From positions 1-64,000 of the IMG/VR virus record IMGVR_UViG_2921643360_000001: DNA of 64,000 nt. One strand, 5' to 3'. Shown one piece after another: positions 10,957 through 56,506 of the stretch. Within the stretch, counting starts at the first letter, position 1, and each line of letters opens with the position of its first letter. Both the position numbers and the translations under genes were made by a program. The notes below the pieces were generated by a model, which saw only the letters and a program-made list of their open reading frames with translations, was not told the DNA's origin and did not search any database. The stretch comes from a virus.

Positions 10957-11370
10957 TTAGGCGGCTTTCTTGAACGTCCGGACGACCACCATCTTTTCTT
11001 CCTCGGTGACGTCCAGGTTGTAGGCCTCATCCATCCAGTCGATAGCCTCGGGCTCGCCGTGCTTGCCACCGCCGTACCAGTATGTCCAGCCTACCCATGA
11101 GCCGTCTGGAGCCTTAGCGGCTACCGACTTGCTCTCGTAGTGCCGCGACGACTGGCAGGGAAGTTTCGTTTCAACTTCGCCTTCGCGAACCTCGTAGATC
11201 GCGTCCCACTTGTCCTCGCACTCGTCGTACAGATCGTCGATGTTGTCGGCGGTCACTTCGACTTCAATCGGCGTCTCGGCCCAGTCGGCGATTCTGGCGA
11301 GGATGATGTGTTTGATCTTTTGTTCGGGCGTCATGTCTGCTCCAATAGTTGTCCTAACCGCATTGCACAA
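10957..11370 (-). CDS. hypothetical acidic protein
   Basis: 137-aa ORF; first gene downstream of the 700-bp ORF-free leader. Confidence 0.4.
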   Translation of the reverse strand: MCNAVRTTIGADMTPEQKIKHIILARIADWAETPIEVEVTADNIDDLYDECEDKWDAIYEVREGEVETKLPCQSSRHYESKSVAAKAPDGSWVGWTYWYGGGKHGEPEAIDWMDEAYNLDVTEEEKMVVVRTFKKAA

Positions 11371-12127: not shown

Positions 12128-12910
12128 TCAGGTGCTGCGATACATGCCGGATCCGCGCGGCACGATGGCGCCTACACGATGGATAGACACGATATCGGCC
12201 AGCGACCTCGTGATTGGAGGAATGCCATTGTTGATCGAACCAAGGCTGACTTCCTCATCACGGATCCACAACAATTCTTTGACGACAGCGCTGCCGTCGA
12301 CAAACTTGACCACCACATCATCACCCGGAAGAGCTTCGACGCCGGGTTCCACAACGATGTGTTCGCCACTCTTTATGCGCGGCCTCATGCTATCGCCGCG
12401 CACCTTCAAACCATAGGCCGTTGGGTCTGGTGAATGGATGTTGAGCCATCCATGGCCGTGACCTGGCGGATAGTCGTCGATACTGATAAACCCATCCGGC
12501 CCACCCTGCACTTCCCCGACCACGGCTATATCCCTCCCAGCCTTTAGTTCCAATCGCTCGCCAACGTTTGCTTCTGCTCGTGGCAGGCCTTCGATACTAG
12601 CCCCACCTTTCGGGACCGAAGGCGCAATCATGCCTGACTTTTGCCGGTTCTTCGAGATATCAGTGTCCGCTGAAATGTGGTTGCCGGTGACGCCCAAATC
12701 GAAGTAGAGAGTCGGCAAGCCAAGTTCGGACTCGAGTCGCCGCGCAGCTCCTTCGCCGAACCCGCGTCCCTCCCGATAGTTCGGGTTCAGCAGTTGTCGG
12801 ATCCGAGCCGCATCCTGGTTGTGCAGTCGAGCGAATTCAGCGGCGACCCCTCCCGCCTCCCTGTCCACTAGTTCCTGTAGCCGCTTACGGCGGTGCGCAT
12901 GTATGTCCAT
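12128..12910 (-). CDS. cI-type repressor (N-terminal HTH + C-terminal S24 LexA-like autopeptidase)
   Basis: S24 Ser/Lys dyad motifs (GDSMRPRIKSGEHIVVEP; VVKELL). Transcribed divergently from a cro-like gene. Start chosen at MDIHAHRRKRLQ (ATG 12908-12910). Confidence 0.85.
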   Translation of the reverse strand: MDIHAHRRKRLQELVDREAGGVAAEFARLHNQDAARIRQLLNPNYREGRGFGEGAARRLESELGLPTLYFDLGVTGNHISADTDISKNRQKSGMIAPSVPKGGASIEGLPRAEANVGERLELKAGRDIAVVGEVQGGPDGFISIDDYPPGHGHGWLNIHSPDPTAYGLKVRGDSMRPRIKSGEHIVVEPGVEALPGDDVVVKFVDGSAVVKELLWIRDEEVSLGSINNGIPPITRSLADIVSIHRVGAIVPRGSGMYRST

Positions 12911-13013: not shown

Positions 13014-13343
13014 ATGGATACCTTTCGCACCTACTTCAAAGGGCTGACCAAGGCCGAACGCGACGCGCTCGCCAAACAGGTCGGTACGACGGCTGCCTAT
13101 CTCTGGCAGATCGCCTACAAACAGCGTCGCTGCAACGAGTCGATGGCTATCGAGATTGAGAAAGCATCGCAGCGCGCGGTGACGGTCGAAGACCTTCGTC
13201 CCGATGTCGACTGGGCGTACGTCCGGAACTCGGCTCAGTCGATTGCCGATAGTGAAATTGTAGACCGCGCGCAGGCGAGCGACGACGCGCAACCGCCTGT
13301 AGGTCGCGGGAGCGCAGCTAGACACAAAAAAAGCAGTCAATAA
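13014..13343 (+). CDS. Cro / YdaS-like HTH regulator
   Basis: Starts at the internal ATG (MDTFRTYFKGLTKAERDALAKQVGTTAAYLWQIAYKQRRC...). Small basic HTH protein opposite cI. The listed ORF starts at TTG inside the operator region. Confidence 0.6.
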   Translation: MDTFRTYFKGLTKAERDALAKQVGTTAAYLWQIAYKQRRCNESMAIEIEKASQRAVTVEDLRPDVDWAYVRNSAQSIADSEIVDRAQASDDAQPPVGRGSAARHKKSSQ

Positions 13344-13351
13344 CAGGCCGT

Positions 13352-13372
13352 CACCCCTCACGGCGAGGGGTG
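13352..13372 (+). promoter_or_regulatory. perfect 8-bp stem-loop (CACCCCTC-ACGGC-GAGGGGTG) just after cro
   Basis: Seen directly. No T-run follows it. Possible tR1-like pause or attenuator, or a nut-like structure. Confidence 0.4.
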
Positions 13373-13491
13373 CATACAACGATTTCACCAAGAGCATGTG
13401 GGGTTCATAGGGCTAGTAGTAGTTGAAAAATTTTACGTTGCATCCGAGCGGTTAGCGGATGGGTTAGCAAAATTTTCGATACGAGGCACTT

Positions 13492-13842
13492 ATGGACGAC
13501 GAACTGGCAATGGTTGGCGGGATGGTGAAGCGGCCTGATTTCCTGCCTGACGAAGTGATTGATGCCTGCAAGAGCTACCGCGATGCGGTCAGGGTCTCGT
13601 GGGAATACCGAAGGATCAAGCAGATGCACCGCTGCACGCTGGCAGAAAGAATCGATCGGAAGGCGCAGCACGTTTCCGATTACCTCGCGCAGGATGACGA
13701 GCCACATCGGCGGAATCTTCCTGCCGATTCTCTCGATCTGTGGGCGTGTGCTGTTGGCAATTTCGGCGTCCAGCAATGGCTTAACCGCCAGTCACGCTTG
13801 ACGATTCTCGAGGAAGTGATTGCGGAGAGGGCTGCAGCATGA
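13492..13842 (+). CDS. CII-like transcriptional activator (HTH)
   Basis: 116 aa at the cII position in the switch. HTH-like segment QMHRCTLAERIDRKAQHVSDYLAQ. Confidence 0.45.
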   Translation: MDDELAMVGGMVKRPDFLPDEVIDACKSYRDAVRVSWEYRRIKQMHRCTLAERIDRKAQHVSDYLAQDDEPHRRNLPADSLDLWACAVGNFGVQQWLNRQSRLTILEEVIAERAAA

Positions 13843-14012
13843 CGCTACACAAACGCAACGAACTCCAGCGCGCCCAATGGGATGCGTATCTGGCCCGTCA
13901 GGACGTGTCGGTATTCGAACGCGTCTTGCGGTCGCCCATCACGTTCGGAATCGCCATGGCGGCTCTCTGTGCGCTGCCAGTCGTGGTCGTAGTTCTCTTG
14001 CTGGAGTGCTGA
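13839..14012 (+). CDS. hypothetical 57-aa membrane protein
   Basis: ATGA overlap with the upstream gene. C-terminal hydrophobic helix ITFGIAMAALCALPVVVVVLLLEC. Confidence 0.3.
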   Translation: MTLHKRNELQRAQWDAYLARQDVSVFERVLRSPITFGIAMAALCALPVVVVVLLLEC

Positions 14013-14013
14013 G

Positions 14014-14202
14014 ATGCGCGCTGACCAACGAGTAATTGATGACGCCCGTGAGGCTCGAATCGGCGAGTTGGCAGCGCGCATTGACGCCGCCGATACGGCA
14101 GAGGCGCGAGCAATCCTGTTTAGACAGATGAGAGATGAGATTAGACAGCGAAGCATCGAGCAAGTGTGCCGGATGGAAGCTGAGAAGGGGCTGAATCGAT
14201 AG
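14014..14202 (+). CDS. hypothetical small protein
   Basis: 62 aa, Arg/Glu-rich helical. Confidence 0.35.
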   Translation: MRADQRVIDDAREARIGELAARIDAADTAEARAILFRQMRDEIRQRSIEQVCRMEAEKGLNR

Positions 14203-14710
14203 AGACAGCGCCTTTCGTCCGGGCGAACAAATGCAACTGGGCCTGATTGGGCTGGCAGACGAGAAAACAACCGGGTGGCGAGCCCCGTAAAGCGCGCAGG
14301 ATCGGTCGGGGCGCTTGCAGGGGGCCTCGGGGTTAGGCGGACACAGACGCCAGCCAGGAACGACGCGAGATAGGGGTGACGCCGGGGACGGTGGAGACAG
14401 ATTGGCCTTCTGGAGTTGACGGGCAGCGTTCGATGACGACTGATTTTGCGAAACGTGTCACTGGTTATGCGGATTAAGAGTGCAACGTTGCACGCTTTTC
14501 GACGCCGCATAGTACTCCTCACCGCCGCAGGCGGCCGGTCCGGAGCTTTCACCCCAACCCCTGCATTAGTCGGGGTCCGTCCTGACAAAACGGAGGGGAA
14601 GGTGAAAAGGATGCTGAAGAAGATTCTGATCTGGCTGTACTGCCGCGGCGTGTTGAGCATGACAACAGTGGCGCGGATGTTTGAACGTTTCGACTTGAGA
14701 GGGCTGTAAC

Positions 14711-15556
14711 TTGATTACTGAATTGCAACTGCATCCGCTCTGCACTCTCTTCCCGAGAATTGTCGGTGCGGAATTTGAGGCGTTGAAGGCGGACATCGTC
14801 GCCAATGGCCTGCGTCAGCCGATTGTGGTCCACGACGGCATGATCCTGGACGGCGGCAATCGCTATCGTGCCTGTATCGAGGCTGGAATCGAACCGTCTA
14901 CGGTTGAATTTGATGGCGGCAATCTGGTGTCGTTCGTCCTGTCGGCCAATCTGCATCGCCGCCACCTGTCAGAAGGCCAGCATGCCGCAATCGTCGCGAG
15001 CGCCCAGCAATGGGAGTCCGCGCAATCGCAAGGGAGACCGAAGAAAACCGGTAACGTTACCGGATTATCGACAGTGGCAGAGAGACGGGCGGTATCTGGC
15101 GCAAGCGATAAGACGCAGCGCATGGCGGACAAGGTGGCGAGAGAGTCACCGGAACTCGCAAAGAAAGTCGCGCAAGGCGAAGTCAGCCTTCCTAAAGCAA
15201 TCAAGCAGCTCGCGCCTGCAAAGGCCGCCCCAGTAGCGGAACCTGAGCCCGAACAGGTCGAGGCCGCAGAGGAGGAGTTTGGCCCTAGCGCGGAAGAGAT
15301 CGCATTTCTTGAGGCGACCGAACAGGCCGACAGAGACGCCTATAACAACCTTGTCGAGATCGCAGCGGCTGACGACAAACTCGCCGAGGCGCTTGCACTG
15401 GTCGTCACGCAAACCCATGAGATCGCACGACTCAGGGCGCTTGTTCGTGTCGTAGAAGAGTCGCGCGACGGCAAGATGATGACGATCAACGAGCAGATCC
15501 GCACGATCAAATCATTGCAGCGAAAACTCGAAAAATTCGAAAGGACTGCGGCATGA
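14711..15556 (+). CDS. ParB-like nuclease-domain protein
   Basis: N-terminal ParB/Srx fold (LHPLCTLFPRI...GLRQPIVVHDGMILDGGNRYRACIEAGIE) and an acidic Ala-rich C-terminus. TTG start inferred. Confidence 0.7.
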   Translation: MITELQLHPLCTLFPRIVGAEFEALKADIVANGLRQPIVVHDGMILDGGNRYRACIEAGIEPSTVEFDGGNLVSFVLSANLHRRHLSEGQHAAIVASAQQWESAQSQGRPKKTGNVTGLSTVAERRAVSGASDKTQRMADKVARESPELAKKVAQGEVSLPKAIKQLAPAKAAPVAEPEPEQVEAAEEEFGPSAEEIAFLEATEQADRDAYNNLVEIAAADDKLAEALALVVTQTHEIARLRALVRVVEESRDGKMMTINEQIRTIKSLQRKLEKFERTAA

Positions 15557-17085
15557 ATCACGTTCTCTTTGAAGATCGGCCCAACTACGAGACTGTTAGC
15601 TTCCCTAAGCCGCGACCGTTCCAGACTTCGGCGCACGACCGGCTTCGCGAAGGACGGCGCGCAGGACACAAGAATCAACTCGTGATGGCTCCGACTGGCG
15701 CCGGCAAATCTTATCTTGGTCTCCGCATCGCTCATGAAGCATTGGCGAAGGGGCGCAAGGCGATTTTCGTTTGCGACCGCGAGGCGTTGATCGACCAGAC
15801 TAGCGAGGTCGCAGACAAATATGGCCTAAGCGCGCATGGAGTCATCAAGGCGAATCACTGGCGCGTAAATCGCGATATGCCATTCCAGATCGCGAGCGCG
15901 CAGACGTTGGCTCGTCGCGGATGGCCCGAAGATATGGACGTGATCATCATCGATGAAGCGCACACCCAGTACACGGTATGGCGAGATTACATCCCGAACT
16001 GCCGCGCGTCCGTCATTGGATTGTCTGCAACTCCGTTTTCAGATGGTCTAGGAAAGCTTTTTAGCAATCTGATCAATGCCACGACTATGCACGACCTCAC
16101 CGAATCCGGCGTGCTTGTGCCGATGCGCGTGTTCTCGTGCAAGAAAACCAATATGGACGGCGCTGCAACTCGCGGTGGCGAGTGGACCGATTCCGCCGCC
16201 GAGGAGCGCGGCATGGAAATCGTCGGTGATGTGGTGGCCGAATGGATGAAGCTTGGCGAAGGCCGCAAGACAATCGTCTTTGGTTCCACGATCAAGCATT
16301 GCGAGGAATTGTGCCGGGAATTCAATGCCGCTGGCGTGATGGCCGCCGTGTTCACATCTGAAACGCCGCCCGAACAGCGCAAGCCGCTCCTTGAGGAATA
16401 CCGAAAGCGTAACTCAGTGTTGCGCGTGCTGATTAGCGTTGAGGCTCTGGCGAAGGGATTTGATGTGCAGGATGTTGGCTGCGTTGTCGACTGTCGGCCT
16501 CTCCGCAAGTCTCTAAGCACGGCAATCCAAATGTGGGGAAGAGGCCTGCGTTCGTCGCCGGAAACTGGTAAGCAAGATTGCCTGCTTCTTGATCATAGCG
16601 GGAACATCACCCGGTTTTTGGATGACTACACCGACATTTTCTATAACGGCCTCGACGCGTTGGATGCTGGTGAAAAGCTGGATAAGGCGGTGCGCAAGGA
16701 GCCTGAAGAGAAGGAGGTGGTCGCCTGCCCTTCATGCGGCTATAAGCCTTTCGGACGGCGCTGCATGTCGTGCGGATTCGAGCCGAAATCTTCAGCCCTT
16801 GTGGAGGCCGTACCCGGTGAAATGCAGGAGGTCGTTATAGGAAAAAGGAAATTGGCCGACGACAAACGGCACCTATATGCGCAGATCTGCACATATGCGC
16901 GCTCCCATAGTGACCCAGACAAGCAGCGTGGGCGGGCGGCGCACCTTTATCGAAAAATCATGGGCGATTGGCCGCCACGTGACTTCGTGTTCGAGAAGAC
17001 GGAGAACGTCACCATCGAGCGCAACACACTGAACAAGATCAAATCAACCAACATTGCTGCGGCAAAGGCGCGCTCAAATGGCTGA
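15553..17085 (+). CDS. SF2 DEAD/DEAH-box DNA helicase with C-terminal zinc ribbon
   Basis: Walker A (MAPTGAGKS), DEAH box (IIIDEAH), SAT motif, helicase-C motifs, and CPSCG...CMSCG at the C-terminus. Confidence 0.85.
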   Translation: MNHVLFEDRPNYETVSFPKPRPFQTSAHDRLREGRRAGHKNQLVMAPTGAGKSYLGLRIAHEALAKGRKAIFVCDREALIDQTSEVADKYGLSAHGVIKANHWRVNRDMPFQIASAQTLARRGWPEDMDVIIIDEAHTQYTVWRDYIPNCRASVIGLSATPFSDGLGKLFSNLINATTMHDLTESGVLVPMRVFSCKKTNMDGAATRGGEWTDSAAEERGMEIVGDVVAEWMKLGEGRKTIVFGSTIKHCEELCREFNAAGVMAAVFTSETPPEQRKPLLEEYRKRNSVLRVLISVEALAKGFDVQDVGCVVDCRPLRKSLSTAIQMWGRGLRSSPETGKQDCLLLDHSGNITRFLDDYTDIFYNGLDALDAGEKLDKAVRKEPEEKEVVACPSCGYKPFGRRCMSCGFEPKSSALVEAVPGEMQEVVIGKRKLADDKRHLYAQICTYARSHSDPDKQRGRAAHLYRKIMGDWPPRDFVFEKTENVTIERNTLNKIKSTNIAAAKARSNG

Positions 17086-17941
17086 CTTCATTAGTTTTGC
17101 ACTTTCGCATGGCGTTGTTATCAACCGCTTGGATGACAGCGGGCGTATCAAACGCTGCGGCACGGTCGATCACCCGAAATCCACCAACGGCGCATACATG
17201 TGGGACGGGCAGCGTGGTTTTGCATTCGCATGGGACGCGGACGCAGAGCCGAAGTGGTTCAACGATCCGCACGCGAAGCCGTGGACCGAAGAGGAAAAGC
17301 GAGCGTTCGCAACGCGGCAAGACGCTGAGCGCCGCAAGAAAGTTGGGCGCTATCAGCAGGCAGCGAGGAATGCAGCGGAACTGATGAAGACGGCAGTTAT
17401 GGGCGAGCACAACTACTTCCATTACAAGGGTCTGCCCTTGGCTCGCGGTCTGGTGTTGCCTGATGGCGGTCTGTTCGTGCCGATGCGCGGTCTGAGTGGC
17501 GGTCTGCAGGGCGCGCAGACGATCCGATGGGATGCAGAGAACCGCACGTACGAAAAGAAGATGCTGTCGGGCATGCGGGCGAAAGGCGCCGTGCTGAAGC
17601 TTGGCCCGGCCCGATCGAACGAGACGGTGCTGTGTGAAGGCTACGCGACCGGCCTGTCGATCGAAATGGCAATCCGCCAGATGCGCCTGAATACTCAAGT
17701 GCTGGTGTGCTTCTCGGATTCAAACATGGCTTTCGTCGCGTCGAGCGTGAATGGTCGCAAGTTCGTGTTTGCCGATAACGATAAGTCTGGCGCTGGTGAG
17801 CGTGCGGCAAAGCAAACCGGCCTGCCCTATTGCATGAGCGAACAACTTGGAGAGGACGCTAATGATATGCACGTTCGGTCTGGCCTGATGGCGGTCTGTC
17901 AGAAAGTGATGGCGCTTAGACGAATGGATAAGGCGGCATGA
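17078..17941 (+). CDS. TOPRIM-domain DNA primase
   Basis: TOPRIM motifs (VLCEGYATGLSIE; VFADNDKSGAGE). N-terminal Zn-binding-like segment. Start ATG 17078 overlaps the helicase stop. Confidence 0.65.
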   Translation: MADFISFALSHGVVINRLDDSGRIKRCGTVDHPKSTNGAYMWDGQRGFAFAWDADAEPKWFNDPHAKPWTEEEKRAFATRQDAERRKKVGRYQQAARNAAELMKTAVMGEHNYFHYKGLPLARGLVLPDGGLFVPMRGLSGGLQGAQTIRWDAENRTYEKKMLSGMRAKGAVLKLGPARSNETVLCEGYATGLSIEMAIRQMRLNTQVLVCFSDSNMAFVASSVNGRKFVFADNDKSGAGERAAKQTGLPYCMSEQLGEDANDMHVRSGLMAVCQKVMALRRMDKAA

Positions 17942-18105
17942 TCCACGACCCAGCCAGATTACGCGAGGTCATCGAAGAAATCGCCGCTTGGCCCCTCGAC
18001 AAACGTCGCGAATACATCCGGCAAATCGAAGAGGCAAACGGAAAGTCCGCAGCAGATCAACTGCGAGCGGGGTTGGTGGAATTGTGGCGGGAACGGGATA
18101 AGTAG
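17938..18105 (+). CDS. hypothetical 55-aa protein
   Basis: ATGA-coupled to the primase stop. Confidence 0.3.
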   Translation: MIHDPARLREVIEEIAAWPLDKRREYIRQIEEANGKSAADQLRAGLVELWRERDK

Positions 18106-18120
18106 AGGGGAAGCGAGAAA

Positions 18121-19539
18121 ATGCAACGAAGAGCAAACGTAGAGTTGAGGACTGCTTACAACGCTTTCATTGAAAGCAAGCGCATGTCCGATCCGGCATC
18201 GGGGTTGACGGAAATCCCGGCGCTGAATCAAACGCTCAAGCCGCACCAGCACGACATTGTGACGTGGGCTCTCCGTCGCGGTCGGGCTGCCGTGTTCGCC
18301 GGAACTGGCCTGGGCAAGAGTTTCATGCAACTGGAATGGGCTCGCTGTGTCGCTGAGGCAACGGATATGCCCGTGCTAATCCTGGCGCCGCTCGCTGTGG
18401 CCGCGCAAACGAAGCGAGAAGGCGAAAAGTTCGGGATTGAGGTCAAGCACTGCCGAGAGCAATCGGAAGTTGGCGATGCATCGATCGTCGTCACGAACTA
18501 TGACCGGCTGCAGAAATTCGACCTTGAGCATTTCGCAGGCGTCGTGCTGGATGAGTCGAGCATCCTCAAGGCATCAGACGGCAAGACCCGCACGGCAATC
18601 ATCGAGGCATTCAAGGATTACCGATTCCGGCTCGCCTGCACCGCTACGCCGGCGCCGAACGATTACATGGAGCTCGGCAACCACGCGGAATTCCTTGGCG
18701 TGATGACGCAGGAAGAAATGCTGGCGATGTTCTTTATTCACGACGGTGGCGAGACGCAGAAATGGCGCCTCAAGGGCCATGCAGAAAGCGAGTTCTGGAA
18801 ATGGATGTGCTCGTGGGCCGTGATGCTGCGCAAACCGTCCGACCTTGGCTATCCGAACGACGGCTACGATCTGCCGCCGCTGGCTATCGAGCAAATCACG
18901 GTTGGTGTCGACCATGACCGCGCGCAAGACACGCTTTTCGTGATGCAAGCCGCGACGCTGCAGGACCGGATCAAAGAGCGGCGCGAGACCGTCGAGGAGC
19001 GCTGCCGTGCTGCCGTCGAAATCATCGCCCGTAAGCCCGATACGCCGTGGCTTGTGTGGTGCAACCTGAACAGCGAAGCGGAACTCATGACGAAGCTGAT
19101 CGCGGATGCCGTTGAGGTTCGCGGTTCCGACAAGGTCGAAGACAAGGAACGCAAGCTTCTCGGCTTCACGGACGGCCAGATTCGCGTCATGACGACCAAG
19201 CCAAGCGTAGCCGGATTTGGGATGAACTGGCAGCACTGCGCAGACATGGTTTTCGTCGGCCTCAACGACTCATACGAGCAACTGTTTCAGGCAATTCGCC
19301 GTTGCTGGCGCTTCGGGCAGACGAAGCCAGTGAATGTCTATCTCGTGGCTGCTGAGACCGAAGGCGCAGTCGTGGCGAATCTGCATCGCAAAGAGGCTGA
19401 CGCCGAGCGCATGGCTGAGCAGATGGTCGCTCACATGCAGGACATTACCGTCGCCACGATTCGCGGCACGTCCCGAACCAAGACCGAATACAACCCGTCC
19501 GTCGAAATGACGATCCCCCAATTTCTGGAGGCTGCATGA
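18121..19539 (+). CDS. SNF2-family helicase
   Basis: PHQHDIV, Walker A AGTGLGKS, DExx (VVLDESS) and C-terminal helicase motifs. Confidence 0.85.
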   Translation: MQRRANVELRTAYNAFIESKRMSDPASGLTEIPALNQTLKPHQHDIVTWALRRGRAAVFAGTGLGKSFMQLEWARCVAEATDMPVLILAPLAVAAQTKREGEKFGIEVKHCREQSEVGDASIVVTNYDRLQKFDLEHFAGVVLDESSILKASDGKTRTAIIEAFKDYRFRLACTATPAPNDYMELGNHAEFLGVMTQEEMLAMFFIHDGGETQKWRLKGHAESEFWKWMCSWAVMLRKPSDLGYPNDGYDLPPLAIEQITVGVDHDRAQDTLFVMQAATLQDRIKERRETVEERCRAAVEIIARKPDTPWLVWCNLNSEAELMTKLIADAVEVRGSDKVEDKERKLLGFTDGQIRVMTTKPSVAGFGMNWQHCADMVFVGLNDSYEQLFQAIRRCWRFGQTKPVNVYLVAAETEGAVVANLHRKEADAERMAEQMVAHMQDITVATIRGTSRTKTEYNPSVEMTIPQFLEAA

Positions 19540-20417
19540 AAGTTTTGAATGAAAAGATCGGCGCCGACTACGCCATGTATCACGCAGATTGCGTGGAAGG
19601 CGTATCGGGCCTGCCGGATGAATCCGTGGGGTTCTCGGTATTCAGCCCGCCATTCGCAAGCTTGTACACGTACAGCAACAGCGATCGCGACATGGGCAAT
19701 TCGAAAGACGATGGCGCGTTCGATGTTCACTTTCAGTTTCTGGTGAAGGAGCTGTATCGAGTTCTCAAGGCTGGCCGCCTGGTGTCGTTCCATTGCATGA
19801 ACCTGCCGACCAGCAAAGCGCATCACGGCTTCATCGGCATCCGGGACTTCCGCGGTGACCTGATCCGCATGTTCGAGAAGGAAGGTTTCATTTTCCATAG
19901 CGAGGTATGCATCTGGAAAGACCCGGTTACGGCGATGCAGCGCACGAAAGCACTTGGGTTGCTGCACAAGACGATCCGCAACGATTCGAGCATGAGCCGA
20001 CAGGGTATCCCCGATTACCTGGTGACGATGCGCAAGCCGGGCAAGAATCCTGAGCCGATCGCGCACACGCACGAAGAGTTCCCCGTCGAGCTGTGGCAGC
20101 AATACGCGTCTCCCGTGTGGATGGACGTAAATCCTAGCGACACGCTGACATTCCGCGAAGCTCGCGATGAAGAAGATGAGAGACATATCTGCGCTTTACA
20201 GCTCCCCGTCATCGAGCGCGCGCTGAAGCTTTGGAGCAATCCGGGCGACGTGGTGCTGTCCCCGTTCGGCGGGATTGGCTCAGAGGGATATGTCTCACTG
20301 CAAATGGGGCGCAAGTACATCGGCTTCGAGCTCAAGGAATCGTACTGGAAAGTTGCTTGCAAAAATCTTGAGTCGGCAAAGGCAAGCATGGGCGACATGT
20401 TCGCGGAGGTGGCGTAA
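19536..20417 (+). CDS. DNA methyltransferase (N6-adenine / N4-cytosine, beta class)
   Basis: Catalytic SPPF (DPPY-type) motif near the N-terminus and the AdoMet motif FGGIGSEG near the C-terminus. Start overlaps the SNF2 stop within a GGAGGCTGCATGA junction. Confidence 0.85.
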   Translation: MKVLNEKIGADYAMYHADCVEGVSGLPDESVGFSVFSPPFASLYTYSNSDRDMGNSKDDGAFDVHFQFLVKELYRVLKAGRLVSFHCMNLPTSKAHHGFIGIRDFRGDLIRMFEKEGFIFHSEVCIWKDPVTAMQRTKALGLLHKTIRNDSSMSRQGIPDYLVTMRKPGKNPEPIAHTHEEFPVELWQQYASPVWMDVNPSDTLTFREARDEEDERHICALQLPVIERALKLWSNPGDVVLSPFGGIGSEGYVSLQMGRKYIGFELKESYWKVACKNLESAKASMGDMFAEVA

Positions 20418-20912
20418 ATGCCCGGTAACAGCAAGAAACGCAAAAAGTACAGCCCGAGCCGCTCCGTTCATCGCATCGTCGCATGGGCCGAACGCAAGGT
20501 AGGCGAGCGCCCTATCCGTCAGGATGCCCAGCGCGACATCGGTATCGCCGCACACATCGCTTTCGAGCGCCTGCGTAATGGCGCCGACAAGGATTCGCTC
20601 TACATCATCGCGACCACTTTCGATGTCGCTTACGAGTTGGCCGTGAAGGGTTGCGGCGCCGAATACCTGGGCGAAATCAAAGCTGGCATGGCCGCTCTCG
20701 TCCGTGCCAAGAAAGACGCGAACCTGACCGGCAAGTGGATCGTTACTGGCGACGACACCGAAGCGGTGCGTACGGCGCTAGAGGTGCATGACGCGCAACT
20801 CGAAGTCGCCGCACGCGCTGTCGTCGTGAAGGCGCTTAACGACGTGATGAAACGTATTGAGACAGGTTCAAACGAAACTGAATTCGAAACGATGCTTTTG
20901 GAGGCTGCGTGA
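20418..20912 (+). CDS. hypothetical protein
   Basis: 164-aa ORF beginning 1 nt after the MTase stop. Confidence 0.45.
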   Translation: MPGNSKKRKKYSPSRSVHRIVAWAERKVGERPIRQDAQRDIGIAAHIAFERLRNGADKDSLYIIATTFDVAYELAVKGCGAEYLGEIKAGMAALVRAKKDANLTGKWIVTGDDTEAVRTALEVHDAQLEVAARAVVVKALNDVMKRIETGSNETEFETMLLEAA

Positions 20913-21361
20913 TGTCAAACCGAGAAAAACCATCCATGAAAACCGTGATCGAGTTCATCGGGAAATTCGGCCCGCTAGAGACGGATCAACTAAAGCTAAT
21001 GCTGCCAATGTCGGAAACCGCCATCTACAAGGCGTGCAAGAGCGGAGTCGACGAGGGATATCTCAGGGTAGACCGCGCCAAAAAGAAAGGCGTATGCGGA
21101 CGCCGGCATTGCATCTACACGCGCACGGACAAGCCTTATATCGCACCGCAGGTTTGCCACAAGACGATCATTAATCGCATCTACAGGGAGCGAATGCTGA
21201 CTATGGATAAAGTTCCAGATAACAGGGTTGTCCCATTCAGGCATTGGATGGATTCGGCGCTTTTCGGCTCTTACCCGACGCCTATTGAGCCGCAGATCAA
21301 GGAAGGTCGCATCTACAGACAGCCAATGAACGTTCGCGATGACGAGGAGCTTGCAGCATGA
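20909..21361 (+). CDS. hypothetical protein (possible winged-helix DNA-binding)
   Basis: 150 aa. GTG 20909 or ATG 20912 start, overlapping the upstream stop. Confidence 0.45.
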   Translation: MMSNREKPSMKTVIEFIGKFGPLETDQLKLMLPMSETAIYKACKSGVDEGYLRVDRAKKKGVCGRRHCIYTRTDKPYIAPQVCHKTIINRIYRERMLTMDKVPDNRVVPFRHWMDSALFGSYPTPIEPQIKEGRIYRQPMNVRDDEELAA

Positions 21362-21582
21362 ACATCCGCGATATAGCAGGCATATCCAGCCAGCAGGAAC
21401 TGTACGAACTGGCGTCGAACTTCAATGTTCACGTCGGCAGCATGGACAAGCTGATCCGATTCGCCGGCGAACTCCAAAAGCGCGCCCTAGCCGACCACGC
21501 AAAGCGCGAGCTGGCGATGGATCGACTTGTTGAGGATGCGGAAGAGCTCGGACTTTATAACGAACCGGAGAAAGCAGCGTGA
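21358..21582 (+). CDS. hypothetical small protein
   Basis: 74 aa, coupled. Confidence 0.4.
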   Translation: MNIRDIAGISSQQELYELASNFNVHVGSMDKLIRFAGELQKRALADHAKRELAMDRLVEDAEELGLYNEPEKAA

Positions 21583-22199
21583 AGAAACTGATTCTCAAGA
21601 AACTGTTGCGGGTGCATTCCAACGCCTGCTCTACGCCCTACTACCACCTGTCCGGCTACATGCTACGCGACTGGATTCTCGGTTACCGCAGCCCGGATCG
21701 AAACGCCGATAACCCAGCATGGAAAGCGGGCTTTAGCCCGAAGTCGTCGGCGCTCTATCGCTGGATCTGCCGCAACGTCGCTATCCGCGCTCACACGATC
21801 CTGCGCAGCGACAACGACCGTCACTTGCACGACCATCCGTCGTGGTCGCTGTCGATCGTGCTGTCGGGCGGGTATTGGGAAGTGTGCGAGCCGACCGAAT
21901 GGGCGAAGCAATTCGGAGCAACGTACCGCCGAATCGTCGACGGACTCGACCGGGGAATGATCGACAACGAAGACAGTTACGAACTCGACTACGTTGCACG
22001 GTTCGGAATCTTCTGGCGCGGACCCGGCGCGATCGTCCTGCGTCGCGCTACTGACTTCCATCGCCTGATCCTGCCACGTGGCACGGTCGCCAAGTCAATA
22101 TTCGTCATGGGCAAGAAAACCAACAGTTGGGGCTTCCTGACGCCTAACGGCAAGGTCTACTGGCGCACGTATCTCGGTCTCGACAAGGAACAAGCATGA
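21579..22199 (+). CDS. hypothetical protein
   Basis: 206 aa. Contains a His-rich segment (HLHDHPSWSLSIVLSGGYWEV); the fold is not recognised. Confidence 0.45.
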   Translation: MKKLILKKLLRVHSNACSTPYYHLSGYMLRDWILGYRSPDRNADNPAWKAGFSPKSSALYRWICRNVAIRAHTILRSDNDRHLHDHPSWSLSIVLSGGYWEVCEPTEWAKQFGATYRRIVDGLDRGMIDNEDSYELDYVARFGIFWRGPGAIVLRRATDFHRLILPRGTVAKSIFVMGKKTNSWGFLTPNGKVYWRTYLGLDKEQA

Positions 22200-23266
22200 C
22201 TCTCGAACACTCGCAGACAGGCGGAATCGGAGACGTCAATTCCAGCGAGCGCGGCTCCGGAGCGAGATACAACACGGGCAAGGTTGCTATCGAGTTGATC
22301 CCTCTGCGTCTGATCGCGGAACAACTTGAACACGCCACGTCGGAAGACGATCCGCAAAACACGCTTATCGGCGCCCTGTGGAATCTCGCGTTGTTTCAGG
22401 AAGGCGGCGAGGCGCATTACCTGCGCGCGGCAATCGAAAACGTCGGATCGGCATGGGACGAATGCGCGGCGGTATTCGACTACGGGCGGAAGAAATATAG
22501 CAAGCGAGGTGATTGCACATGCAGTGCGGGCGATGCGGTACGACTGAACCTGAGCGGTTCTATCTATACACCTACAAAGGCGCAAACATCCGAAAGTTGC
22601 TCAAGGGATTTTGCAAGCCTTGCTACGACAAAGACCTCAAAGAGCGGAATCCAGGGTATCGGAAGCGACAAACCGAAAACCATCGAAAGTGGCTCGCAAA
22701 CCCTGAGAACAGAGAGCGAGCGCGCGCATCTGAACGGAAGCGATCTGCAAAGCGAAAGCTGGACCCAAATTACAAGGAGCAATCCAAGCTCTACCGAATC
22801 AAGCAGGAATACGGACTCACGCCTGAGCAGTACGACACCCTCATCGCGGCAGGATGCGCAATCTGCGGAAGCTTCGATCGATTGCATGTCGACCATTGCC
22901 ACGACAAAGGACACGTCAGAGCAGCGTTATGCCATTCCTGCAACATTGGCCTTGGATTTGTCGAAAGGCCTAACGGCTGGCTTGAGCGCGCACTCGAATA
23001 CCTGCGGCGTACATCAGACGCCGGGGCACACGGGTAACTGGAACTGGGCCAAGGGAATGGCGTGGAGCGTTCCCCTCGCCTGCGCTGCCCGCCATCTGAT
23101 CTTCGGCATGATGGCCGGTGAAGAACTCGACCCTGAATCGGGCCTGCCCCATCGCGGTCACTTCCTCTGCAATCTCGTGATGCTGCTGACGTTCATGCGG
23201 ACCTATCCGGAGGGAGATGATCGTCCGTCGCAATGGTTGGCTACGCCGACACAGGAAGCCGCATGA
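22196..23266 (+). CDS. MazG-like dATP/dGTP pyrophosphohydrolase-family protein interrupted by a 540-bp insertion (reading frame stays open)
   Basis: N-terminal 100 aa and C-terminal 75 aa look like protein. The central 180 aa are S/T-rich low complexity and correspond to an alternative frame of the nested HNH gene. Confidence 0.45.
   Translation: MTLEHSQTGGIGDVNSSERGSGARYNTGKVAIELIPLRLIAEQLEHATSEDDPQNTLIGALWNLALFQEGGEAHYLRAAIENVGSAWDECAAVFDYGRKKYSKRGDCTCSAGDAVRLNLSGSIYTPTKAQTSESCSRDFASLATTKTSKSGIQGIGSDKPKTIESGSQTLRTESERAHLNGSDLQSESWTQITRSNPSSTESSRNTDSRLSSTTPSSRQDAQSAEASIDCMSTIATTKDTSEQRYAIPATLALDLSKGLTAGLSAHSNTCGVHQTPGHTGNWNWAKGMAWSVPLACAARHLIFGMMAGEELDPESGLPHRGHFLCNLVMLLTFMRTYPEGDDRPSQWLATPTQEAA
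22519..23037 (+). CDS. endonuclease VII-family HNH nuclease
   Basis: LHVDHCHDKGHVRAALCHSCNIGLG is the EndoVII/HNH signature. GAGGTG RBS 8 nt upstream of ATG 22519. Lies wholly inside 22196..23266 in a different frame. Confidence 0.75.
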   Translation: MQCGRCGTTEPERFYLYTYKGANIRKLLKGFCKPCYDKDLKERNPGYRKRQTENHRKWLANPENRERARASERKRSAKRKLDPNYKEQSKLYRIKQEYGLTPEQYDTLIAAGCAICGSFDRLHVDHCHDKGHVRAALCHSCNIGLGFVERPNGWLERALEYLRRTSDAGAHG

Positions 23267-23406
23267 AACATTCCCTCATTCTTTTCCTGCTCCTTCTGCC
23301 GATCAGCCTTTCTCTCGCCACACGCCGCATCGGTGTGCGCAACTGGCAATACTGGGCGGTCGTTTTCACTGCGGCGATCATGTTTGAGGCGGGGAGATAC
23401 GTATGA
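23263..23406 (+). CDS. 47-aa small membrane protein
   Basis: MKHSLILFLLLLPISLSLA...; ATGA overlap. Confidence 0.3.
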   Translation: MKHSLILFLLLLPISLSLATRRIGVRNWQYWAVVFTAAIMFEAGRYV

Positions 23407-23747
23407 CCGACGAAGGCGAGATCAATATTTTTCGGGCGCTAGACTTCATCCGAGATCAAGCGCCCGCCTACGCCCAAGCCAAGGCCCAACGAGTCTACCT
23501 GGAGAATTTCAGGAAGAGCAAGAAGGCGCTGCTGATGCGCGCCGCGGAACTCAAGGGCCACAAGACGGCGGCCATCCAAGAGCGCGAGGCGTACGCAGAC
23601 GACGGCTATATCGAGATCCTTGCGGCACTCCAAGCGGCAACCGAGGAAGAAGAACGGCTGCGCTGGATGATCGTCGCGGCAGAGGCAAAGATTGAATGCT
23701 GGAGAACGATCGAGGCGAACCGGCGTGCGGAGGCGAGGACTCTATGA
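23403..23747 (+). CDS. hypothetical protein
   Basis: 114 aa. Confidence 0.45.
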   Translation: MTDEGEINIFRALDFIRDQAPAYAQAKAQRVYLENFRKSKKALLMRAAELKGHKTAAIQEREAYADDGYIEILAALQAATEEEERLRWMIVAAEAKIECWRTIEANRRAEARTL

Positions 23748-23881
23748 GCACCGCCACCTACTACTCAATCCTCGCCACGATCTGCCTCACGCGAGTGGTG
23801 CCTAGGTGGGCTTGCATCGCCAGCGGGATCGTCTATCTCGGGCTTGCGGTTGCTCTTGACATGGGGTGGTTTGCACGATGA
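23744..23881 (+). CDS. 45-aa small membrane protein
   Basis: MSTATYYSILATICLTRVV...; ATGA overlaps on both sides. Confidence 0.3.
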   Translation: MSTATYYSILATICLTRVVPRWACIASGIVYLGLAVALDMGWFAR

Positions 23882-24489
23882 ACCGTCTCCCCAGAAAAAA
23901 GAAGTGCGCAGCTTGCAAGACGGTTTTCGAACCAGCGCGCTCACTCCAGAAAGTGTGTAGCCCCAAGTGTGCCGCCGATTTTGCAGCGAAACAGAAAGCG
24001 CAGAAGTTGGCGAGGGCGAATCGGGAGGAGAGGAAGTCCCTCGCAGAGCGTAAAGCCAAGCTCAAGACTCGCCGCGAGTGGATTGCCGAGGCTCAGGCGG
24101 CATTTAACGCATACGTGCGTGAGCGAGATTACGGGAAGCCATGCATAAGTTGCGGCATCCCGCCGAGGGAAGCTTTCGGCGGCGCTGTTGATTGCGGTCA
24201 TTATCGAAGTGTTGGCAGCGCTTCTCAGCATCGCTTCAATTTAAAAAATTGCGCTGCACAATGTGTCAAATGCAATAGATATTTAGGATCTAATGCCGTC
24301 GAAATGAGGAAAGGACTTATAATTAAGATTGGTCTAGAAGAATTGGAAAATCTAGAGTCAGACCAGACCATCAAGAAGTTCAACATCGAATACCTCGCTC
24401 GCATCAAGCGAGTCTTCCTCAAGAAAGCGCGGCGAGCTAAGGCCCGGAGAAATCATGAGCATAACGAAATGGAATATGCAGCCGGGTGA
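23878..24489 (+). CDS. ninG: NinG / Rap-like protein
   Basis: Cys motifs of the lambda NinG family: CAACKT...CSPKC...CISCG...DCGHYRSVG...RFNLKNCAAQCVKCN. Confidence 0.8.
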   Translation: MNRLPRKKKCAACKTVFEPARSLQKVCSPKCAADFAAKQKAQKLARANREERKSLAERKAKLKTRREWIAEAQAAFNAYVRERDYGKPCISCGIPPREAFGGAVDCGHYRSVGSASQHRFNLKNCAAQCVKCNRYLGSNAVEMRKGLIIKIGLEELENLESDQTIKKFNIEYLARIKRVFLKKARRAKARRNHEHNEMEYAAG

Positions 24490-25264
24490 CCGGTTTTGTC
24501 GGCTGACCTTCAAGAGTGAAGGCGACGGTCGTAAAAATCGGGCGAGATATGGAATCTTCATCTGCGATTGTGGTACCGAGAAAGATGTGGCGTTCTCGCA
24601 CGTTGTTTCGGGAAAAATAAAAAGTTGTGGATGCCTCAAAGCGGAAGATGCCGGTAACAGGCTTCGCACTCATGGGATGCATGGTTCGCCAGAATATACG
24701 GTGTGGCAAGACATGTGGCAGCGCTGCACCAATCCAAAGACGGACAGATATCCGAATTACGGCGGACGGGGCATATCCGTCTGCGAGCGGTGGAAGTCGT
24801 TCGAGAACTTCTTTGCAGACATGGGTCAGCGCCCAGAAGGAACGTCGATAGAGCGAAAGGAGACGAACGGCAACTACGAGCCAAGTAACTGTCGTTGGGC
24901 CACGCCCAAGGAGCAAGGAAGGAATAGAACCAACAACCGTTTTATCGAATACAACGGGGAGAGGAAATGTGTTTCTGAATGGAGCGAGCAATTCGGCATA
25001 CCTCATTCAACGATTAACAATCGACTTCGGCTAGGGTTATCGTTAGATCAGGTTTTTGATGCAAGTGCAGATGGGTTTAAAAAGAAGTCAATCGTTGTCG
25101 ATGGTGTATCGAAGTGCACCAACGAATGGATGCGTGATGCTGGCATACCGATTTCGTCCTTCTATCACTTCCGGCGAAAGGGGCTGACTGAAGAAGAGAT
25201 CGTCAGGAAGTATCTGGCGCGCAAGCAACCCTACTCTCAAACGAATAACGAGGAAGCAGCCTAA
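24455..25264 (+). CDS. HNH-like (HNH_3-type, N-C-R-W-A-T element) homing-endonuclease-like protein, paralogue 1
   Basis: N-terminal CxCG...SCGC zinc ribbon; then HG..SPEYTVWQDMWQRC...YGGRGISVCERW...ADMGQRPEG.SIERKETNGNYEPSNCRWATPKEQGRNR. Clear paralogue of 51329..51952 and 58804..59472. Confidence 0.55.
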   Translation: MSITKWNMQPGDRFCRLTFKSEGDGRKNRARYGIFICDCGTEKDVAFSHVVSGKIKSCGCLKAEDAGNRLRTHGMHGSPEYTVWQDMWQRCTNPKTDRYPNYGGRGISVCERWKSFENFFADMGQRPEGTSIERKETNGNYEPSNCRWATPKEQGRNRTNNRFIEYNGERKCVSEWSEQFGIPHSTINNRLRLGLSLDQVFDASADGFKKKSIVVDGVSKCTNEWMRDAGIPISSFYHFRRKGLTEEEIVRKYLARKQPYSQTNNEEAA

Positions 25265-25459
25265 ATGCTATTCGCACTCGCTGGAATCATTCTCTGTGGC
25301 CTGAAGATCGCGGGCGTGACGATCGTTGCAACGTGGCCGTGGTGGCTGGTCACGCTGCCCTTCTGGATCGGCATTGCCATGTTCTTCGCAATGCTGCTGA
25401 TTGGTGGCGGCTTGTTCGCGCTCGCCGCGGCGTTTATTGCGTGGGTGGATCGCAAATGA
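25265..25459 (+). CDS. small integral membrane protein (2 TM)
   Basis: 64-aa ORF, almost entirely hydrophobic. Confidence 0.4.
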   Translation: MLFALAGIILCGLKIAGVTIVATWPWWLVTLPFWIGIAMFFAMLLIGGGLFALAAAFIAWVDRK

Positions 25460-25848
25460 CTATCAACCTAGACGAAATCGAGAGGCTGGCGAAGGCGGCT
25501 GGCGGTGACAAGTGGACGGCATCTGACGGCGTTGTCTGGTTTGATGATGGCGACTCGGCGTTGCAAGTCATGAATCCGGTTCCTGCGTTCATTGCACACG
25601 ATAACCTCGGAACGTGGCCAGATGCGATAGACCGAGAAGATGTGGCGCTGTTCGCTGCTGCGGTCAACCCAGCCGCCATCCTCGCCCTGATCGCAGAGGT
25701 GCGGGCGCTTCGGGAGGATGCGTATAGGTATCGGTGGCTGCGAGAACAGAATTCCGACTACAAAAGCGCATGGTGTGTCGAGAATATCTACAACTGGGTC
25801 GGTGAAGATCTGGACGCCGAAATCGATAAAGCGCGAGGTGCCGCATGA
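25456..25848 (+). CDS. hypothetical protein
   Basis: Start at ATG 25456, overlapping the upstream stop. Confidence 0.45.
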   Translation: MTINLDEIERLAKAAGGDKWTASDGVVWFDDGDSALQVMNPVPAFIAHDNLGTWPDAIDREDVALFAAAVNPAAILALIAEVRALREDAYRYRWLREQNSDYKSAWCVENIYNWVGEDLDAEIDKARGAA

Positions 25849-26060
25849 CCTTCATTGCTTTCGGCGTCGGCATGATATTCGCCTATGGGTCTGTTCTGGA
25901 GGTCCTACTTATTATGCCGGGGCGTAAGCCGCCCGCTCCGCCGCCTACCAAGTTTCGACGCAAGTATCGAGACCTTCCCGTTGCCGACATTCCGCCGCCG
26001 TGGGAGAGAGTCGAAGGCATCGATTACAAATGGATAAACATTGCGGGAGAGCAGGAATGA
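25845..26060 (+). CDS. hypothetical small membrane protein
   Basis: 71 aa with an N-terminal TM helix. Confidence 0.35.
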   Translation: MTFIAFGVGMIFAYGSVLEVLLIMPGRKPPAPPPTKFRRKYRDLPVADIPPPWERVEGIDYKWINIAGEQE

Positions 26061-26317
26061 ACAAGCCTTCAGAACACTTTCTGCGAATGATGGTCGCGGC
26101 GTTTTACGAACTGCCGGGAAATTGCGTAGGCGGTTGTCTGCGCATCGTCCTCGATGATGACAACCTCGAAGACCATCACGTCCGCTGGTGTCGGGAGGAG
26201 GCGCAAAAGCGAAACGACCAGGATGCGATGTTTATGTGTGACGTGCTGATGCTCTACACCGAGGACGAGCGATTCGAGATTCTGGAGACTCGCGGGCTTC
26301 CACCGTACGAAGAGTAA
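26057..26317 (+). CDS. hypothetical protein
   Basis: Start at the internal ATG (MNKPSEHF...). Confidence 0.4.
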   Translation: MNKPSEHFLRMMVAAFYELPGNCVGGCLRIVLDDDNLEDHHVRWCREEAQKRNDQDAMFMCDVLMLYTEDERFEILETRGLPPYEE

Positions 26318-26432
26318 AAGTGTTGTCCTCGCGTGCGCATAGCACACCATAGCGCGTAGGACAACGAAATTTATGATACTATTAGTAGGTTAACAAGCGT
26401 TGTTTTCCACAATAGATTGTGCGGGGTTCAAG

Positions 26433-26831
26433 ATGACGCAAGAACAATCCGATGAAGTTGAGCATTTGCTGAGAACATGGTTTGAGTGGCAATGTCGCCA
26501 GTCCATCGCCATGCACGCGAAGATGTATTACCGCCCTGCCGATTCTATGGGTCGCCAATCGATCACGAATCGCACGTGCGAAGAGGACGATGAAGTCGCG
26601 TATCAATGGGCGGACGATCAGCAATCGGAGCAAGTCCAACTCTGCGTCGACGAACTCACGATCGACCAGCGAGCGGCGATATCAACATCGATGCGTAATA
26701 AGGCTAGCGACGCGTCAGTGTGGAGATCAGTGCGCGTTGGCGATCAGCACGCCGTCTATCAGTCGGCAAAGTCTGACCTTATCCCGATGCTGGCTGCGCG
26801 GCACCTTATTCGGATGGAGATGGCGGTATGA
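26433..26831 (+). CDS. hypothetical protein
   Basis: 132 aa; first gene after an AT-rich promoter-like island. Confidence 0.45.
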   Translation: MTQEQSDEVEHLLRTWFEWQCRQSIAMHAKMYYRPADSMGRQSITNRTCEEDDEVAYQWADDQQSEQVQLCVDELTIDQRAAISTSMRNKASDASVWRSVRVGDQHAVYQSAKSDLIPMLAARHLIRMEMAV

Positions 26832-27553: not shown

Positions 27554-27630
27554 AAAATATTTGAGAAAAGTGCTTGCGCAACGATTCTAGCTGTGGCATT
27601 GTTCGGGGTAGGGGCCTTGCGCCCAAATCA

Positions 27631-27663
27631 GCCCGATCCAGCGAAAGCCGGTCGGGCTTTTTC
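27631..27663 (+). terminator. rho-independent terminator
   Basis: GCCCGA-N15-TCGGGC hairpin followed by TTTTT. Confidence 0.65.
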
Positions 27664-27665
27664 AT

Positions 27666-56504: not shown

Positions 56505-56506
56505 TT

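Follow-up and report, generated by a model that had tools for sequence, protein, structure and literature searches.

Why do so many unrelated early proteins of one prophage end in the same two residues? The stretch of DNA analysed here (the window) comprises 64,000 nt, positions 1 to 64,000 of the IMG/VR virus record IMGVR_UViG_2921643360_000001, and its gene content marks it as a prophage with a lambdoid-type temperate layout and a contractile tail. At the end of the helicase gene 18121-19539, the stop codon overlaps the start codon of a DNA methylase gene as ATGA, shortly after a GGAGG-type ribosome-binding site (RBS). A first-pass annotation of the sequence had reported this arrangement as a recurrent module, GGAGG-N5-ATGA, that forces -(L)EAA C-termini on many unrelated proteins. 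We found that the junctions of the rightward early operon (early-right operon, Table 1) are uniform enough to give Ala-Ala ends to about one third of its unrelated early proteins.

Ala-Ala ends at the junctions of early genes

Genes were called by codon-usage scoring together with the scoring of Shine-Dalgarno (SD) sequences and starts, and the model was corrected by hand for two missed genes, yielding 114 genes. A first model contained 115 genes, from which the binomial p values by region derive. Sixteen of the 114 proteins end in Ala-Ala, compared to 1.55 expected from per-protein residue sampling (maximum of 8 in 5,000 trials). Five proteins end in -EAA, with 0.10 expected, and three in -LEAA. 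The enrichment of Ala-Ala and -EAA ends over the composition-matched expectation therefore holds. By region, such ends are found in 12 of 34 early-right proteins (p = 4e-14), in three of 28 early-left proteins (p = 0.013, then 3 of 27) and in one of the remaining 52. The residue at position -3 of these 16 proteins is E (5), K (3), G (2), or one each of A, T, L, C, M, and V. Paralogy or a common C-terminal domain was rejected as there were zero BLASTP matches between the 16 proteins, and the effect is stronger than the first-pass annotation had claimed. An artefact of the gene caller is unlikely because the C-terminus is set by the stop codon alone; the result was stable at score thresholds of 0, 10, and 20, and public gene calls on the source contig (GCA_004334975.1, MWML01000013.1) concur, with the identical 4-nt overlap at 19536-19539.

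At the DNA level, the 13-mer GGAGGCNGC[AG]TGA, or GGAGGCNGCRTGA, occurs three times in the window against 0.03 expected, a number reached in none of 100 shuffles. The motif GCNGCATGA is not significantly enriched (9 copies, 5.2 expected) and is informative by its placement alone: all nine copies lie within 13-31 kb, and eight, all on the plus strand, coincide with stop/start junctions. The only non-junction copy, at 16732-16740 on the minus strand, is antisense inside the helicase gene 15553-17085.

All nine junction sites listed in the first-pass annotation are present at or close to the positions reported there, with some corrections. The module is real, but the distance from GGAGG to the ATG is 4 nt, the 5 nt being those to the TGA. 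The site reported at 20896-20912 was given with four extra T at its front; the motif proper is GGAGGCTGCGTGA at 20900-20912, and the start may be either the GTG at 20909 or the ATG at 20912. Among the related versions, those at 15544, 17926, and 23251 carry partial SD cores. The site at 25245-25264 has the Ala-Ala tail, with a TAA abutting the ATG instead of an overlap and GCC as the last Ala codon of the HNH endonuclease gene 24455-25264, while the minus-strand pair at 9727-9745 exists with the tail -EEA and not -AA.

The anatomy of these sites is that of translational coupling. Fourteen -4 overlaps between co-directional open reading frames (ORFs) were called in the early-right operon, an ATGA or GTGA overlap was found at ten of the 12 listed early-right junctions, and each listed junction has an SD (GGAGG, GAGG, GGAG, or AGGA) 4-8 nt ahead of the start. 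An overlap plus an intragenic SD is the standard arrangement and the 13-mer recurs between unrelated genes, so that the earlier description as a translational-coupling module is borne out to this extent. Coupling at overlaps has been analysed over 720 genomes and also by experiment (Huber et al. 2019, PMC6728339), sequences around the SD were found to modulate it (PMC6728339), and the bacterial preference for NNA-UGA codons has been attributed to such overlaps (Weber et al. 2020, PMC7246954). The sites in the window share with these ATGA/TGATG coupling junctions the 4-nt overlap of co-directional genes, the last codon forced to NNA, the SD within the upstream gene 4-8 nt before the start, and the dense use within one operon. 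They are almost certainly ordinary termination-reinitiation coupling junctions, at which we infer from their anatomy that coupling operates. Unlike at known coupling junctions, however, the codons between SD and stop are stereotyped to Ala-Ala in about one third of the early genes. This stereotypy is not reported in PMC6728339 or PMC7246954, and the words “alanine” and “Ala” are missing from the main text of the latter.

We rejected RNA structure hiding the SD, as the folds of 11 junctions were no more structured than shuffled controls (z from -1.3 to +2.6); this fits expectation because start regions stay open. The ATGA overlaps at 47131, 48270, and 48917 in the tail operon are without a recognisable SD, unlike every early-operon overlap. 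Any coupling at these three sites would work without an SD.

What fixes the two terminal codons

The SD explains only part of the tail. When GGAGG lies 5 nt before the stop it is read G-GAG-G, therefore residue -3 is Glu and the codon at -4 ends in G, encoding Leu, Lys, Arg, and others, in the frame G-GAG-GCN-GCA-TGA. The two Ala codons sit in the spacer, and nothing in the SD dictates them; of the claim that the module forces -(L)EAA ends, the Glu thus stands and the two Ala do not. Moreover, the SD distance in the window varies from 4 to 8 nt while GCNGC-[AG]TGA stays fixed. At -4 overlaps, the last residue is Ala in 10 of 14 cases in the early-right operon versus one of 12 elsewhere in the window (Fisher p = 0.0017), with GCA making up 17% of NNA codons, and Ala-Ala occurs at none of seven ATGA overlaps of late genes.

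To place these numbers, 160 loci were fetched around homologs of the helicase 18121-19539, and the caller was run on the 117 of at least 8 kb (early loci). The host control comprised 600 kb from replicons of S. meliloti (Sinorhizobium; pSymA/pSymB) and A. fabrum (Agrobacterium; pAt) (L161-L166, L247-L252), and the structural control consisted of modules downstream of portal homologs in 80 related viral contigs, analysed with the same caller. In the early loci, 15.6% of 2,897 non-redundant genes end in Ala-Ala, compared to 1.5% for the internal Ala-Ala dipeptide, and single-linkage clustering over the 117 loci showed that 233 of 1,982 early-gene families (11.8%) mostly have this end. The share is 4.1% among host genes (23 of 558) and 0.5% in structural modules (2 of 369 genes, 2 of 270 distinct termini, 1 of 43 families), which makes the early rate about 4-fold higher than that of host genes and about 30-fold higher than that of structural genes. 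In the rhizobial genes themselves, the 4.1% of Ala-Ala ends exceed the internal dipeptide (1.7%, p = 1e-4), a mild host-level bias. Junctions in the related loci have a G-rich block at -13 to -9, the SD position is alike at junctions with and without Ala-Ala, and the residues at -3 rank E, A, G, V, R.

At ATGA contexts, Ala-Ala is found in 257 of 971 cases (26.5%) in early loci and in six of 88 (6.8%) in the host replicons (p = 8e-6). Mycobacteriophage Emma, a GC-rich temperate phage with dozens of overlaps, has it at one of 50 [AG]TGA contexts and in 2 of 63 genes overall. A general trait of GC-rich genomes or of ATGA overlaps was therefore rejected on the basis of the rhizobial replicons and Emma. 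A requirement of the start context for GCNGC was rejected as well, since GCNGC precedes the ATG in only 2.1% of non-coding start regions in early loci (16 of 778; 5 of 285, or 1.8%, in phages with many Ala-Ala ends), in 0% of structural and in 1% of host ones.

The tails also occur where there is no overlap. Sorted by stop context, 26.5% of early genes end in Ala-Ala at ATGA, 15% at GTGA, 8.8% at -1 overlaps, 8.9% where the stop is directly followed by ATG, and 11% with 1-4 nt in between. The share is 8.0% (82 of 1024) at early stops without an ATG start overlapping or within about 7 nt, where all four Ala codons are used, and 12.6% (47 of 372) in early genes whose stop has no ATG or GTG within about 20 nt, with all Ala codons and all three stop codons in use. 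All three stop codons are used by tails followed by gaps of >15 nt. Ala-Ala is hence dictated by neither the SD, the overlap nor the initiation context.

A softer version of the forcing claim is pure constraint. A functionless tail would result if, given a strong SD, an NNA last codon and a C before the ATG, Ala codons were the cheapest filler: they resemble neither SD nor start, and Ala is small and harmless. Several observations agree with this. Early genes have Ala-Ala at ATGA three times as often as at other stops, the trait is GC-dependent, all three sets prefer C at -1 of their non-coding start regions (38-39%), and the wobble position of the penultimate Ala is enriched in A (38% versus 15% inside genes), indicating start-region pressure there. 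The last residues at early ATGA junctions rank A, then Q, E, S, K, a ranking that resembles the NNA codons expected to have well-supplied tRNAs; the tRNA that reads GCA, tRNA-Ala(UGC), commonly has its gene within rRNA operons. Yet host operons, late phage operons, and Emma are equally constrained and have only 2-7% Ala-Ala, the penultimate Ala is left unexplained by the start region, and non-coding spacers are A-rich and do not contain GCNGC. Furthermore, tails far from starts still occur at 4-8 times the frequency of the internal Ala-Ala dipeptide. We therefore regard constraint alone as a doubtful explanation.

Selection on the codons themselves is suggested by their maintenance in place. 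Among the homologs of the helicase 18121-19539, 93 of 159 end in Ala-Ala, 78 of 116 (67%) if the methylase gene is directly downstream and 15 of 43 (35%) if another gene follows (p = 3e-4). At the 78 syntenic Ala-Ala junctions, position -3 is taken by 14 different residues and the penultimate Ala is encoded by all four of its codons, with Ala-Ala located 2-5 residues from a conserved [FW][LIV] motif. Nine relatives share the exonuclease tail -IAAMAA without any overlap, with synonymous changes of the last Ala codon and switches between TGA and TAA. In two loci (L254, L256), non-homologous genes upstream of the same phosphatase gene both end in GGGAGGCNGC[AG]TGA (-EAA). Ala-Ala is kept while neighboring residues and codons change, a pattern that marks selection on the last two codons and not the inheritance of a fixed sequence. 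We thus consider it probable that these two codons are selected and are not a by-product of SD and ATGA, with selection presumably acting at the protein level.

The 13-nt form of the module is a matter of lineage. No close named phage relatives were found by megablast (a single 114-nt match), and uncultivated viral contigs and an Acidiferrales metagenome-assembled genome (MAG) come closest, with 74-90% protein identity for single genes; tBLASTn showed the helicase-methylase pair to be widespread and nothing more. In the early regions of the closest full-length relatives (viral contigs of 65-70 kb), 18-35% of the proteins have Ala-Ala tails, mostly -xEAA. Per 100 kb, the exact 13-mer occurs 10.6 times in close relatives, 1.8 times in other early loci, 0.37 times in structural modules and 0.17 times in host DNA. 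The motif search in related phages that the first-pass annotation had suggested yielded 28 copies of GGAGGCNGC[AG]TGA in the window and close relatives, located between unrelated genes, whose flanks are unrelated and show no conservation beyond the 13 nt; the N position of the motif has no information content. In the lineage of the window, GGAGG-N4-[AG]TGA is present in 39 copies, compared to 8, 4, and 5 for N5, N6, and N7, and 24 of the 39 have a CNGC spacer. GGAGG-N4-ATG lacking an overlapping TGA occurs once, and GGAGGCNGCN-stop is kept also in TAA-TG and TAA-ATG arrangements. Since the N4 spacing is bound to the overlap and the TAA arrangements keep the sequence, the unit is anchored to the stop codon.

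Such a stop-anchored module, with the preference for N4 and the largest phage-specific excess at coupled junctions, would also be compatible with an optimum for termination and reinitiation, in which Ala-Ala in the P and E sites and an SD 5 nt before the stop cause fast release while the ribosome is retained, so that tightly coupled early operons would select for the arrangement. That sequences surrounding the SD modulate coupling (PMC6728339) fits as well. However, overlaps of host and late genes do without Ala-Ala, and the tails are found also where an operon ends or a long gap follows. We know of no influence of Ala in particular on release or reinitiation, and consider this explanation improbable.

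Gene exchange at the junctions and layout of the prophage

The first-pass annotation had also suggested that such conserved boundaries are preferred sites of modular recombination. The shared sequence of 9-13 nt could provide microhomology for the swapping of cassettes, perhaps by a phage recombinase of the Erf/RecE type, and spread within the gene pool. Erf-like and RecE-like proteins are encoded in the window, the 28 exact 13-mers with unrelated flanks are dense in close relatives and rare in host and structural DNA, and the patchy distribution among lineages would fit a gene-pool signature. Homology blocks start or stop at the junctions 13834, 19539, 22194, 23403, 26828, and 30648, one locus (L001) has an HNH gene precisely within the 19539 junction, and a model of boundary sequences exists in the literature (PMC3029335). 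What the module has in common with the lambdoid boundary or linker sequences (cited in PMC3029335, refs 21-22) is that one short sequence recurs unchanged at numerous gene borders of the mosaic early region, in a temperate phage of lambdoid organisation, and that homology blocks end there.

The mapping of breakpoints speaks against this proposal. Homology blocks end at gene boundaries of all kinds, and synteny breaks are frequent throughout and no commoner at Ala-Ala-ATGA junctions than at other types, with per-family break rates of 0.93 for Ala-Ala-ATGA, 0.83 for other ATGA and 0.77-0.93 for other types. The conserved helicase/methylase junction has Ala-Ala more often than the rearranged ones do, and this gene pair moves as a block, with homology ending at 18148/18157 and 20403, next to junctions of other types (18105/18121 with a 15-nt gap and 20417/20418 with TAAATG). 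In contrast to the lambdoid linkers, the module is not tied to synteny breaks, is best kept at a non-recombinant junction, and lies wholly within coding and translation signals with a length of only 8-13 nt. The constant part is just 8 nt in most cases, reaching 12/13 in the lineage-specific form, with variable SD position and an uninformative N. A length of 8-13 nt is probably shorter than the homology needed by phage recombinases. Block ends at boundaries are equally expected from random joins followed by selection for intact genes, the standard objection to the boundary-sequence model (PMC3029335). A role as recombination linker is hence unsupported, and we judge it improbable.

The insertion in L001, the Acidiferrales MAG, is an HNH endonuclease gene (1201-1965, 254 amino acids) exactly within the helicase/methylase ATGA junction, with the upstream GGAGGCCGCATGA kept. 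It looks like a free-standing homing endonuclease.

Table 1 Junctions and principal genes of the window, with C-terminal residues of the upstream protein in brackets.
Feature	Position	Strand	Description
Integrase	481-1554	-	
RecE-like exonuclease and Erf-like annealing protein	5251-6713	-	
CI-like repressor	12128-12868	-	
Cro-like gene	13014-13343	+	
Early-right operon	13014-30959	+	own gene model, Pfam and PHROG matches
GCAGCATGA junction	13834-13842	+	gene 13492-13842 (-ERAAA) overlaps start of 13839-14012; SD GAGAGGG 7 nt upstream
GGACTGCGGCATGA junction	15544-15556	+	ParB-like 14711-15556 (-ERTAA), then helicase 15553-17085; RBS only GGA
GGATAAGGCGGCATGA junction	17926-17941	+	Toprim 17078-17941 (-MDKAA), then 17938-18105; RBS only AAGG
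GGAGGCTGCATGA, flagged site	19527-19539	+	SNF2/DEAD-type helicase 18121-19539 (-FLEAA), then DNA methylase 19536-20417
GGAGGCTGCGTGATG junction	20900-20914	+	gene 20418-20912 (-LLEAA), then 20909 or 20912-21361
CGAGGAGCTTGCAGCATGA junction	21343-21361	+	gene 20912-21361 (-EELAA), then 21358-21582
GGAGAAAGCAGCGTGA junction	21567-21582	+	gene 21358-21582 (-PEKAA), then GTG start of 21579-22199
AAGGAACAAGCATGA junction	22185-22199	+	gene 21579-22199 (-KEQA, Ala at last position only), then 22196-23266
ACAGGAAGCCGCATGA junction	23251-23266	+	MazZ-like 22196-23266 (-TQEAA), then 23263-23406; RBS only AGGA
GAGGAAGCAGCC-TAA-ATG	25245-25267	+	HNH endonuclease 24455-25264 (269 amino acids, -NEEAA) abuts 25265-25459
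AGGTGCCGCATGA junction	25836-25848	+	gene 25456-25848 (-ARGAA), then 25845-26060; SD GAGGTG starts at 25835
GCGGCTTGA	27545-27553	+	metallophosphatase 26828-27553 (-LDCAA); next 166 nt without start
GGAGGCGGCATGA junction	30636-30648	+	helix-turn-helix (HTH) protein 29470-30648 (-MLEAA), then 30645-30959
AGTGAGGGAGGAAGCATGA	9727-9745	-	joins two small ORFs (43 and 40 amino acids); tail -REEA
GCCGCGTGA	8553-8561	-	gene 8553-8750 (-IRGAA) overlaps GTG start of 8353-8556
GCCGCCTGA	5251-5259	-	RecE-like exonuclease 5251-5904 (-IAAMAA); 23-nt gap before next gene
GCCGCCTAA	10957-10965	-	gene 10957-11334 (-FKKAA); then 92-nt gap
GCAGCCTAG	62411-62419	+	578-amino-acid protein 60683-62419 (-IKVAA); sole Ala-Ala tail outside both early operons

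The window has a GC content of 58%, and no tRNA genes were found in its 64 kb. The early-right operon encodes the Cro-like and ParB-like proteins, two helicases, a Toprim protein, an N6/N4 DNA methylase, a protein with a MazZ-like domain, a NinG/Rap protein, an HNH endonuclease, a metallophosphatase, and an HTH protein. It is followed by terminase, portal, major head, tail sheath, tape measure, and fibre genes. The two genes missed by the codon-usage caller, the NinG-like and the HNH gene, both lie within an island of lower GC content (53%) comprising a NinG/Rap-like endonuclease (23866-24489, PHROG E = 7e-78) and the HNH endonuclease (24455-25264, E = 6e-66). The island 23866-25264 may be a recent acquisition.

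Three further genes are worth mentioning. In the 356-amino-acid protein encoded at 22196-23266, the C-terminal third matches the Pfam family dGTP_diPhyd_N (MazZ-like dATP/dGTP diphosphohydrolase, E = 3.6e-18), a domain tied to phages with modified purines. An early protein of 206 amino acids (21579-22199) matches phrog_4786, “cysteine dioxygenase” (E = 1e-30), an odd function for a replication region. Directly after the tail-fibre genes, a radical-SAM-like protein of 437 amino acids is encoded at 53929-55242 (PHROG E = 1e-12), and downstream of it minus-strand genes without assigned function are located at 55707-57494. The region 53929-57494 could be a cargo or defence region.

A possible degradation signal on early proteins

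The account that we prefer, and hold tentatively at somewhat short of even confidence, has two layers. In the first, the stop of one gene overlaps the start of the next, with the SD of the latter inside the 3′ end of the former. In the second, a terminal Ala-Ala would be under selection in early genes, anchored to the stop and not to the start, across the early non-structural genes of the window's lineage and of many temperate phages of GC-rich bacteria. As GCA-TGA is the sole way to join a terminal Ala with ATGA, the two layers fuse into GGAGG-CNGC-[AG]TGA. The selection might be explained if ClpXP, ClpAP or FtsH recognised the free Ala-Ala carboxy end as a weak degron of the ssrA kind, by which early replication and DNA-modifying proteins would be short-lived, whereas virion proteins lack the tail. 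This degron function is speculative and drawn by analogy, and we give it slightly less credence than the account as a whole.

The analogy has several parts. CtrA of Caulobacter carries a ClpX degron ending in Ala-Ala. The ssrA degron likewise ends in Ala-Ala-COO-, bound in the ClpX channel (PMC10638403), and for sigma-AntA the natural Ala-Ala end has been proposed to serve as a signal for ClpXP, with a change to Asp-Asp raising the expression of its target (PMC3933326). Bacteria generally disfavour hydrophobic C-termini, and LAA is generally reported as the end of the ssrA tag in bacteria except Mollicutes (PMC7246954). Like ssrA and the ClpX C-motif-1 degrons (PMC3933326, PMC10638403), the tails in the window present a free Ala-Ala carboxy end on unrelated proteins, namely on transiently needed ones, with virion proteins essentially without it. 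They differ in that position -3 is usually Glu, Lys, Arg or Gly instead of Leu/Val, and in that they are patchy among lineages and partly double as RBS.

A number of observations weigh against this account. Position -3 mostly lacks the non-polar residue of ClpX C-motif 1, and the protein encoded at 20912-21361 has the sole ssrA-like -LAA end among the proteins of the window. Emma is without the Ala-Ala trait despite LAA-ended ssrA being general (PMC7246954). It is mainly at coupled junctions that early genes exceed host genes: the excess is only about 1.8-fold at stops without an ATG start overlapping or within about 7 nt (early 8.0%, host 4.6%, p = 0.04), and without ATG or GTG within 20 nt 11.8% of early genes (10.6% of families) compare to 6.7%, a difference that is probably not significant. 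The structural contrast is borderline at the family level (p = 0.054) because there are only 43 structural families, and the host control is from Rhizobiaceae and not from the window's own host. Tails of metallophosphatase homologs vary between -CAA, -WGA, -WAA, -WTA, -EAA, and -QEA. The trait depends on GC content, is absent in low-GC and Firmicutes relatives (0 of 92), and is patchy, ranging from 3% to 38% in prophages of the same genus (overdispersion p = 4e-4).

Between prophages of one host genus with equal GC content (L037, L038 versus L057, L062), the share of Ala-Ala tails varies about ten-fold, for example 10 of 26 against one of 29 in Rhizobium. Since the spread occurs within the same genus and at the same GC content, the trait tracks the phage lineage rather than the host.

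While junctions of this type are known, the stereotyped Ala-Ala tail on early proteins and the contrast between early and late genes are apparently new: a bias of phage early genes toward Ala-Ala was not found described in the full-text literature searched, which under-represents subscription journals. If the module were only an optimum for coupling, it would reveal determinants of reinitiation beyond the SD, which Huber et al. inferred but did not define. If, on the other hand, the degron reading is true, early proteins would be cleared fast, e.g., after the lysogeny decision or at the switch to late functions. It is rather unlikely, though worth stating, that temperate phages of GC-rich bacteria in general carry a built-in Ala-Ala-COO- on much of their early proteome, cleared by ClpXP-type proteases of the host. 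A degron of this kind would provide a simple, genome-encoded timing device for phage early proteins, and a cheap marker to separate early from late modules in uncharacterised prophages.

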